Assembly (NCBI GenBank): GCA_951406725.2
Contig: OX597825.1
Coordinates: 52,080,001 to 52,144,000 of the forward strand
Reading direction: 5' to 3'
DNA length: 64,000 nt
From: Octopus vulgaris
Taxonomy: Eukaryota
Under the pieces are notes generated by a model that was not told the origin of the DNA, made no database searches, and worked only from the letters and a program-made list of their open reading frames with translations. Position numbers and translations under genes: made by a program. Position 1 is the first letter of the stretch; the number at the start of each line of letters is the position of its first letter. Below, piece after piece: positions 14,707 to 33,937 of the stretch.

Positions 14707-15265
14707 CATCATCATCATCATCTTCGTCGTCATCATTTAACGTCTGCTTTCCATGCTGGCATGGGTTGGACAGTTTGACTGAGGACGGGTGAACCAGATG
14801 GCTGCACCAGGCTCCAATCTGATTTGGCTGAGTTTCTACAGCTGGATACCCTTCTTAACACCAACCACTCCGAGAGTGTAGTGGGTGCTTTTACATGCCA
14901 CTGGCATGAAGGCCAGTCAGGCGGTACTGGCAATGGCCACGCTCAAATGGTATTTTTTATATGCCACCTACACAGGAGCCAGTCCAGCAGTACTGGCAAC
15001 AACCTTACTTGAATGTTGTTTTTCATGTGCCACCAGCACAAGTGCCAGTAAAGCGATGCTGGTAACGATCATGCTCGAATGGTACTCTTTTCATTCCACC
15101 GGCATGGGAGCCAGTCAGCAGCCCTGGCAACAATCATGCTTGGATGGTGCTCTTAGCGCTCCACTAGCACGGATGCCAGTCATGCGGTGTGTTCATTGAA
15201 TTTGATTTTGATTTCACCTGCCTCAACAGGCCTTCACAAGCAGAGTTTAGTTTCCATCTGATGGG
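14706..15265 (-). mobile_element. Family B element (RTE 3' UTR-derived, (GAT)n tail), long form
   Basis: (CAT)n, then TTTAACGTCTGCTTTCCATGCTGGCATGGGTTGGAC..., then internal ~60-bp subrepeats. Confidence 0.85.
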
Positions 15266-23028: not shown

Positions 23029-24436
23029 CATCATCATCATTTAACGTTCGTTCTCCATGCTAGCATGGGTTGGACGGTTCAACTGGGGTCTGGGTAGCCC
23101 GAAGGCTGCACCAGGCCAGTCAGATCTGGCAGTGTTTCTACAGCTGGATGCCCTTCCTAACGCCAACCACTCCGAGAGTGTAGTGGGTGATTTTATGTGC
23201 CACCGACACAGGTGCCAGACGAGGCTGGCGAACGGCCACGCTCGGATGGTGTTTTTTATATGCCACCGACACAGGTGCCAGACGAGGCTGGCAGACAGCC
23301 ACGCTCGGATGGTGTTTTTATGTGCCACCGACACAGGTGCCAGATGAGGTTGGCGAATGGCCACGATCGGATGGTGTTTGTTACGTGCCTGCAGCACGGA
23401 AGCCAGTCGATGCGGTACTGGCTATGGCCACGTTCGGATGGTTTTCTTGTGTGCCACCGGCACTGGTACCACAAAGATACAAATCCCATTGATGTTCATC
23501 TATTTTGATTTGTTTTTTGATTTACACTTGCCTCAACAGGTCTTCACAAGTGTCATGTGCCACCGACACAGGTGCCAGATGAGGCTGGCGAAACGGCCAC
23601 GAACGGATGGTGTTTGTTAATTGCCCACAGCAAGAAGGCCAGTCGATGCGGTACTGGCTACCGCCACGTTTGGATAGTTTTCTTGTGTGCCACCGGCACT
23701 GGTACCACAAAGATACAAATTCCATTGATGTTCATCTATTTTGATTTGTTTTGATTTGATTTTCACTTGCCTCAACAGGTCTTCACAGTGTCACAAGAAG
23801 GAAGGAAGGTATGCACAGGTGGACTGACTACGTCCCAGGTAGGGGCCACGGGTTATGGCCTGACTAGTCTTGCCGGGTCTTCGGATGGTGTTTTTATGTG
23901 CCACCGACACAGGTGCCAGATGAGGCTGGCGAACGGCCACGATCGGATGGTGTTTGTTATGTGCCCACAGCACAGAGGCCAGTCGATGCGGCATTGGCTA
24001 CGGCCACGTTCGGATGGTTTTCTCGTGTGCCACCGTACTGGTATCACAAAGATACAAATTCCATTGATGTTCATCTATTTTGATTTGTTTTGATTTGATT
24101 TTCACTTGCCTCAAAAGGTCTTCACAAGTGTCACAAGAGGGAAGGTATGCACAGGTGGACTGAATACGTCCCAGGTAGGGGCCACGGGTTATGGCCTGAC
24201 TAGTCTTGCCGGGTCTTTGGATGGTGTTTTTATGTGCCACCGACACAGGTGCCAGATGAGGCTGGCAAACGGCCACGATCGGATGGTGTTTGTTACTTGC
24301 CCACAGCACGGAGGCCAGTCGATGCGGTACTGGCTACGGCCACGTTTGGATGGTTTTCTTGTGTGCCACCGGCACTGGTACCACAAAGATACAAATTCCA
24401 TTGATGTTCATCTATTTTGATTTGTTTTTTGATTTG
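23028..24436 (-). mobile_element. Family B element with expanded, hierarchical internal tandem repeats
   Basis: (CAT)n end, followed by repeated TGTGCCACCGACACAGGTGCCAGA.GAGGCTGGCGAACGGCCAC units and larger repeated blocks. Confidence 0.85.
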
Positions 24437-24438
24437 AT

Positions 24439-33399: not shown

Positions 33400-33454
<55 letters not shown>

Positions 33455-33551
33455 ACATATATATATATGTGAGAGAGATAAATAATCTATTCTCAAACGA
33501 ATGATAAACTACAGGATAAACTATACATATATTGCAGAAAAATTCTTTACC

Positions 33552-33624
33552 AGTCAGCTATGAGACTCGAACTCACATCCCTGTGATTACATGTCAAGTG
33601 CTTTACCTTTCAGCTAAACTGTCC
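33552..33624 (-). pseudogene. tRNA-derived sequence (UGU in the anticodon-like loop, Thr-like) inside a repeat element
   Basis: Minus strand GGACAGTTTAGCTGAAAGGTAAAGCACTTGACATGTAATCACAGGGATGTGAGTTCGAGTCTCAT... has an A box, a B box (GTTCGAGTC) and a downstream T5. The cloverleaf is imperfect. Confidence 0.6.
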
Positions 33625-33905
33625 AGTAACGAGTTGTTCTGCAATTTTTAGATTTATAAATCTAACTCTATAAGATGCTAATGTTAAATTCAGCTTACAA
33701 TGAATGTAAACAAAGTTTGCTTTAGAAACATTGAGATGTATTGAAAGATACAGAAATAATTTATTCTCGAGCGCATGATAATGCTAATACAATAATTTAT
33801 GCTATTGTATTAGCATTAGCATGTGTTTGAGAATAAATTATTTCTGTATCTTTCAATATATCTCAATGCTTCTAAAGTAAAATTTGTTTGTTTACTTTCA
33901 TCAGA

Positions 33906-33935
<30 letters not shown>

Positions 33936-33937
<2 letters not shown>

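Follow-up and report, generated by a model that had tools for sequence, protein, structure and literature searches.

Animal non-LTR retrozymes, as described in two sources (PMC7229834; bioRxiv 10.64898/2026.07.22.740005), are dispersed non-coding repeats with monomers of the 170-400-nt class that form partial tandems, and they have been proposed to be mobilised by Penelope-like elements (PLEs). PLE insertions are marked by partial tandems, by a 5'-truncated copy in inverted orientation, by a tail on one of the ends and by a bias towards (TA)n (PMC8557442), and their target site duplications (TSDs) measure 8-10 bp (PMC3846280). For an Anolis PLE, PMC11167929 describes two internal start sites of reverse transcription, one on either side of the tail, with cutting and extension of both DNA strands. 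The role of the hammerhead in PLEs is stated as unclear in PMC8557442. Here, we describe a repeat in a window of 64,000 nucleotides of Octopus vulgaris DNA. On the one hand, it resembles the retrozymes in its dispersed non-coding monomers, its partial tandems and its proposed mobilisation by PLEs. On the other hand, it has no hammerhead core on either strand and carries a tRNA cloverleaf at its apex, its copies run to at most about two monomers in our sample, and it is known here from genomic copies. Because it has no hammerhead, the element is not a retrozyme by definition; it is not a standard SINE either, and behaves like a non-autonomous PLE.

Compared with the PLEs Neptune, Naiad, Hydra and Poseidon, the tRNA family is alike in its partial tandems, its inverted 5'-truncated copy and its one-end tail (PMC8557442, PMC11167929, PMC3846280), and also in its variable TSDs and (TA)n bias (PMC8557442, PMC3846280). 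Naiads likewise have no canonical hammerheads. The family differs from PLEs in having no ORF, in a tail of about 60 nt compared with the 30-40 nt reported for PLEs, and in having no sequence link to any PLE examined. The TRIMp3 elements Cassandra, Helenus and Ajax are also non-autonomous and carry an internal module derived from a small RNA (a tRNA in Helenus), but they have LTRs, a PBS and a PPT and depend on LTR elements (PMC10886601), whereas the tRNA family has PLE-type ends. A two-LTR layout was not found in it: its monomers follow one another head-to-tail in permuted form, and no internal part is set apart. Like it, Sm-alpha and Sj-alpha of Schistosoma consist of non-coding units in tandem that carry a Pol III promoter, which is predicted for the tRNA family, but they are described as having a hammerhead (PMC6765202), which the tRNA family lacks. 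In comparison with tRNA-derived SINEs, the family is similarly short, non-coding and dispersed, with a tRNA-derived module bearing A and B boxes; it differs in that the tRNA is internal with a terminator directly behind it, and in its permuted tandem and inverted copies with fixed internal 3' ends.

In the window, a long arm on the minus strand (33472-33794) is joined head-to-head to a short arm on the plus strand (33796-33913). The monomer was numbered in the tRNA sense, with u1 at 33794. On this scale, the long arm comprises u1-290 and u1-49 of the next monomer with a 16-bp deletion and stops at the 'short' 3' site (~u49), and the inverted, 5'-truncated arm comprises u284-290 and u1-110 and ends at the 'long' 3' site (~u110). 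Alignment of this copy to the family consensus gives 294/339 with 16 gap positions. The preliminary description had reported a direct repeat with a 274-bp period, a fold-back, a minus-strand tRNA-like sequence with A and B boxes and a T5 terminator, and (TA)n on both sides, and all of these are present. The direct repeat (33472-33507 and 33746-33781; 36 nt, 81% identical) is spaced by 274 bp because this copy carries the 16-bp deletion relative to the family monomer; the period therefore holds for this copy but not for the family, which has a period of 290 bp. The fold-back arms (33708-33794 and 33803-33889) are 87 nt long and 91% complementary, with the right arm extending to about 33913. The (TA)n tracts flank the copy at 33403-33468 and 33913-33937. 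Considering the microsatellite flank statistics of the family, the left tract is the likely insertion target, and the right tract is common to this copy and a younger hammerhead-like neighbour.

Within the long arm, on the minus strand, the 'tail' (33685-33744, u51-110) is the stretch bounded by both preferred 3' ends of the family. The tRNA-like module (33552-33623, u172-243), identified by an Rfam match and covariation, contains the A and B boxes and lies between the two strands of a long stem. These are the 5' leader strand (33624-33645, u150-171), supported by the fold and covariation, and the 3' trailer strand (33531-33550, u245-264), which contains the T5 at 33538-33542. A hairpin region after the long stem (33511-33530, u265-284) appears in the consensus fold and the five-family alignment. 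The bracketing of the module by ATTGCAGAA/TTCTGCAAT that had been pointed out earlier is real, but the two sequences form only the outer 9 bp of a leader-trailer stem of about 23 bp.

The copy belongs to a dispersed non-coding family with a monomer of 290 bp, a length that fits the tandem non-coding units of 170-400 nt of the non-LTR retrozymes. In the 2.8-Gb genome there were 1638 candidate matches, the best 40 of which were scored, and an exact 22-mer of the family occurred 92 times (control, 0). We collected 186 loci representing 133 distinct insertions with a mean identity of 91% to the consensus, in a sample biased to well-conserved copies and to copies containing the query anchors. Subfamily B is set apart by linked variants. 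Family C (312 bp, 1564 candidates) was reached via RNA read ends, and families E1 and E2 (289 bp, 58 candidates) via a profile scan. The five consensus families show pairwise identities of 62-96% and monomers of 289-312 bp. Family C shares the two end sites, with 27 of 44 outer ends at c118-127 and 7 at c50-61, the query having favoured long copies, and the E families show head-to-head arms. As a side observation, one motif derived from reads had no exact genomic match, and a second such motif led to family C.

The outer (3') ends of the insertions are concentrated at two places. Among the 192 such ends in the 133 insertions, 153 lie at preferred positions about 60 nt apart (81 at u41-61 and 72 at u94-116). 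Both orientations are present in 59 insertions, all of them head-to-head and none tail-to-tail, and the remaining 74 have a single orientation. The inverted insertions mostly combine one short and one long end (38 of 59); one is short-short, one is long-long, and in 19 one of the ends lies elsewhere. The longest runs in a single orientation measure 585 and 546 nt, which is about two monomers. Microsatellites flank 61 of 133 insertions, compared with 48 of 394 background pairs. When the microsatellite-flanked insertions were dropped, 8 of the 30 inverted insertions left had duplications of at least 8 nt around them (mean of the shuffles 0.24, maximum 2); such duplications surround 5 of 37 single-orientation insertions, some duplications being simple repeats. 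Some insertions are flanked by duplications of 8-13 bp. The collected copies thus show the features of non-autonomous PLEs: they form partial tandems that are truncated to varying extents at the 5' end, their inverted 5'-truncated copies lie head-to-head, the tail extension is found on only one of the ends, and variable-length TSDs occur together with a microsatellite bias. The circular permutation, the partial tandems and the fold-backs (head-to-head in 59 of 59 inverted insertions) that had been described from one copy proved to be family-wide in the collected copies, as did the microsatellite bias and the two-site tail.

Since this insertion architecture matches both the published PLE features and the hammerhead-like neighbour, we consider it highly probable that the repeat is mobilised by PLE machinery. 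The two arms of each inverted insertion would then be two cDNAs, and the tail (u51-110) may be the region in which reverse transcription starts, a reading based on the family end counts and on analogy to the Anolis PLE (PMC11167929).

An ordinary LINE-dependent tRNA SINE, or a passive independent insertion of a tRNA in a repeat, would explain why the head derives from a tRNA and bears A and B boxes, and one of the 30 tRNA-anchored loci, L046 (1492-1582), holds the tRNA part u165-257 alone. This locus is probably an interrupted copy and not a solo tRNA insertion; its 3' flank resembles another common repeat. Against such an origin, the inner (5') ends (n=192) are scattered, with 4 at the tRNA start (u167-177) and 10 at u240-248, which agrees with the earlier view that the repeat is unlike a standard SINE. 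Moreover, there are two fixed internal 3' ends, the consensus has no A-rich or simple-repeat tail, and the module is kept with compensated pairing in families that are 62-67% identical. In the tRNA-anchored set, which contains the copy in the window as well as loci already collected before, 25 of 30 loci reach upstream beyond u145, 28 extend past u285, and 24 run both ways beyond the stem. The passage of 28 anchored loci beyond u285 and the presence of the module in all five related families indicate that the tRNA is not an independent insertion. These observations already contradict the SINE or independent-insertion reading, for which we see hardly any chance.

The hammerhead-like neighbour (33938 to about 34500) adjoins the tRNA element, is inserted in the same (TA)n and was used as a control family. 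It represents a young 363-bp tandem and inverted family with 1373 candidates, and its copies are 96-99% identical. Its putative, non-canonical hammerhead-like motif stands on a long stem and has two extra core bases and a palindromic stem III; Rfam did not call this motif, nor any ribozyme elsewhere in the window. At 29 loci, the 50 outer ends fall mainly at n5-9 (23) and n65-77 (26), the tail measures 63 nt, and 19 of 21 inverted insertions are short plus long, which is the same layout as in the tRNA family. Both families place a functional module on a long closing stem. Because homology to the neighbour is undetectable, the proposal that a tRNA stands 'instead of a ribozyme' amounts to a similarity of layout and not to a swap that was traced. 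A profile search found no match between the two families, and the alignment scores do not demonstrate homology (global z 1.7, reached by 21 of 500 shuffles; local z 2.1, reached by 13 of 500). No hammerhead core (CTGANGA or a relaxed match) was found on either strand of the five consensus monomers, and a degenerate hammerhead on the antisense strand of the tail was ruled out, as there is no core there. A variant of the neighbour family with 80% identity was observed at L265:1-292.

For the tRNA-like module (33552-33623, minus strand), the Rfam model RF00005 scores 40.1 bits (cut-off 29; E 5.4e-5), and ARAGORN at its default threshold called no tRNA. The module differs from a canonical tRNA in that position 33 is G or C, U33 being lost, and G2/G71 are unpaired in the classic register. 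The canonical cloverleaf, U33 and fully paired acceptor stem of a functional tRNA gene are therefore not found together in it. A source tRNA was unassignable, as the best of 30 genomic tRNA matches reached 50/73 (Arg-TCG), followed by 49 (Lys-TTT, Thr-TGT). The CGT and GGA 'anticodons' of the module carry no meaning. A run of at least five T is present in 68 of 72 scored copies. The A and B boxes are kept in all five family consensuses, with predicted promoter activity, as is the T5; the T arm is invariant, and position 33 is never U.

With RNAalifold, the five family consensuses form a full cloverleaf atop the long stem. This fold has 43 pairs, 11 of which are changed on both sides, and 197 of 210 cells are paired, compared with 1-3 double changes and 82-105 paired cells in slid controls; the five related families represent few independent events. 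The leader-trailer stem has a z of -3.4 against 200 shuffles. In 15 natural copies, 86% of the cells pair and double changes occur in 15 pairs, among them 4 of the 6 pairs of the anticodon stem; these values were reached by 0-1 of 500 shuffles, a control inflated by relatedness. The single-sequence minimum-energy fold of family A has no anticodon or T arm, another hairpin being preferred over them, and alifold on the 15 natural copies missed the anticodon arm and the extension. Because the cloverleaf and the stem of about 23 bp are kept through 11 double changes, the tRNA fold looks selected at the RNA level, beyond the needs of a promoter. It is quite probable that the module works as a folded RNA and not solely as a DNA promoter.

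A Pol III promoter requires the A and B boxes only, and these boxes do not demand compensated acceptor, anticodon and leader-trailer stems. Nevertheless, the retention of both boxes and of the T5 in all five families would be expected if the family were PLE-mobilised and its module, like those of Cassandra, Helenus and the schistosome Sm-alpha, served mainly as an internal Pol III promoter. Pol III would start at one tRNA, leak through the first T5 and terminate at the following one, so that the RNA would be redundant at its ends. The unit yielded no other promoter, and there are precedents in TRIMp3 (PMC10886601) and in the tandem SINE-like Pol III repeats of Schistosoma (PMC6765202). However, the T5 sits about 9 nt after the tRNA, ahead of the insertion-templating tail, so Pol III would stop before reaching the tail. 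Furthermore, of 84 anchor-unbiased arms, 24 continue beyond u171, and there is no step at the tRNA start. Accordingly, we consider a mainly promoter role unlikely.

The inner ends show a step within the module. The base A58 of the T loop corresponds to u228 (33567), and when families A, B and C are pooled, 31 of 123 arms stop in the 11 nt 3' of A58 compared with 5 of 92 in the 11 nt ending there (p 8e-5). Among the loci not found by the tRNA query, the values are 17/80 and 3/63 (p 0.004, uncorrected). The modified base m1A58 is a stop for reverse transcriptase. A block at m1A58 or a folded elbow would explain the step and would imply a folded, sense-strand template. This is what is expected if the family is PLE-mobilised and the tRNA mimic stays intact in the template as an uncut structural handle for stability, export, tRNA-binding proteins or kissing-loop dimerisation, the last of which would bring two templates to two nicked strands. 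The absence of processing pile-ups is consistent with such a handle, as are the loop bases 32-35, which are palindromic in every family (CGCG in A, B and C; CCGG in E1 and E2). However, the switch from CGCG to CCGG is a single event, and the A58 step is post hoc, u228 being the strongest of 179 boundaries, and gives 5/15 versus 1/10 in family C alone (p 0.34). An uncut handle is therefore rather improbable in our view. As a side observation, the ACGCGT hexamer of families A-C is also the palindrome in stem III of the neighbour's hammerhead-like motif.

The reading that we prefer, with a probability of roughly 0.55, is that this 290-bp family is copied in trans by PLE RT/GIY-YIG proteins and that its tRNA mimic is cut by the host in an RNase P-type manner, as a substitute for a hammerhead. 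Under this reading, multimeric RNA in the tRNA sense would be made from tandem source copies, and RNase P would cut at -1/+1 in successive monomers. The leader-trailer stem could keep the ends together in a circle, nicked or ligated, around which the reverse transcriptase can run. The PLE protein would nick both strands of an AT-rich target and start cDNA at the tail positions u~50 and u~110, resulting in two 5'-truncated arms placed head-to-head. The RNase P cut and the stem-held nicked or ligated circle as template are a tentative part of this model, to which we give less than an even chance.

The closest precedent for such processing is the mascRNA element of MALAT1, also a tRNA mimic in which leader-trailer pairing extends the acceptor stem. 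In MALAT1, RNase P cleavage is promoted when the leader pairs with the trailer and a single base bulges out ahead of +1, and a continuous stem lowers processing (PMC8457004). A bulge at -1 is possible in the tRNA family. In the register that leaves -1 and 71 as bulges, 45 of 45 cells are paired across the five families compared with 42 of 50 in the classic register, but that register is 4.4-6.5 kcal/mol worse in four of the five. MALAT1 is a single-copy vertebrate lncRNA with a 7-bp extension, a bulged A and demonstrated cleavage (PMC8457004), whereas the tRNA family has an extension of about 23 bp, a predicted -1 bulge of G or C, and hypothetical cleavage.

The insertion ends show no 5'-end pile-up at either processing site, with 4 of 53 at-risk arms stopping no more than 3 nt from the RNase P site and 6 of 131 arms no more than 2 nt from the RNase Z site. 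In the hammerhead-like neighbour, 1 of 23 arms stops at the presumed hammerhead cut. Because the neighbour also fails there, this test is weak either way. RNase P leaves 5'-P/3'-OH ends. Since the hammerhead-generated ends are those ligated by RtcB (PMC7229834), and ends of the RNase P type differ from them, this point was counted against the RNase P step. In addition, hammerhead cleavage is described as dispensable for a PLE in vitro (PMC11167929), and processing may therefore be unnecessary.

RNA-seq data came from two unstranded raw runs of one study (about 6% of each read), in which the mate directions were equal. Of the matching reads, 94-96% continue into unlike flanks, and the copies seen are mostly embedded in host sequence. 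In these two runs, no place gathers starts or ends, and the tRNA is covered at low depth. RNAs that are short and structured are lost from libraries of this type, and the data neither show nor exclude a monomer RNA. The deepest signal, about 2000-fold at L305:1743-1830 (runs X23 and X24), shares one flank and looks like a single family C copy inside an abundant host transcript.

PLEs with both RT and GIY-YIG domains are abundant in the same genome, as are GIY-YIG matches, of which the best 150 of 6136 candidates were scored. Comparison of the unit by blastn and nhmmer with 30 loci carrying GIY-YIG and with 20 longer stretches that overlap them in part revealed no autonomous PLE sharing sequence with it. 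The earlier idea of a PLE-mobilised unit is thus favoured by the insertion architecture but lacks an autonomous partner among these 50 loci. At L277:1930-7172, an ORF of 781 aa with RT plus GIY-YIG at the C terminus lies between 456-bp direct repeats that are 99% identical. By its CxxxxCxxC linker this PLE looks Neptune-like, the clade features for the comparison being taken from PMC8557442, and many 781-aa copies among the matches listed suggest that PLEs of this type were probably active recently. The locus also has an upstream open frame of 359 aa, and the PLE is apparently intact. A PLE fragment at L282:2821-5983 has a 100%-identical 766-bp inverted copy, representing a recent head-to-head insertion.

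Overall, the element is real and dispersed, and is likely a PLE-mobilised, tRNA-derived analogue of retrozymes. In the literature consulted, we found no tRNA-bearing, hammerhead-free PLE-type repeat; Repbase, Dfam and older octopus SINE papers lay outside its scope and may hold these consensuses. Eight short motifs were compared with the PMC8557442 supplement, where line breaks in the FASTA can hide matches; seven were absent and one gave a 12-mer match. Four motifs were absent from the 5,371 characters of text and tables available from the PMC13282606 supplement. That source lists many unclassified SINE and Penelope families without sequences. Repeats of this kind are probably mislabelled as SINEs or tRNA pseudogenes by automated annotation.

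The five PLE-type families with a tRNA fold and their hammerhead-like neighbour offer a natural comparison, and the 290-nt unit is a minimal substrate on which template recognition, initiation at two sites and the way in which head-to-head arms arise could be tested. The family extends tRNA-derived parasites to a third retrotransposon class. More speculatively, and with the odds clearly against it, these families may form a superfamily of ribozyme-free 'retrozymes' that depend on PLEs, carry an RNase P-cut tRNA mimic and use stem-clamped nicked circles as templates, with the palindromic anticodon loop possibly pairing two templates. If true, they would be the PLE counterpart of SINEs, which depend on LINEs, and of TRIMp3, which depend on LTR elements, and they would represent a mobile element using the MALAT1-type processing trick.

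Pieces of the families were also observed in contigs of the sequencing runs X1 and X9, which bear two other organism labels, and 20 sequencing runs under six organism labels match with small shares; no RNA run was among those listed, which is no evidence either way. In the X9 contigs, which bear organism label E, the summed depth is very high over the region after the long stem (L305:1472-1527 and 1752-1807), hinting at further, larger related families, and several intermediate subfamilies are among the loose ends. Elsewhere in the window, a GC-richer repeat forms nested tandem arrays with periods of 63, 236 and 336 bp at 23191-24438, and it is also found near 14925-15182.
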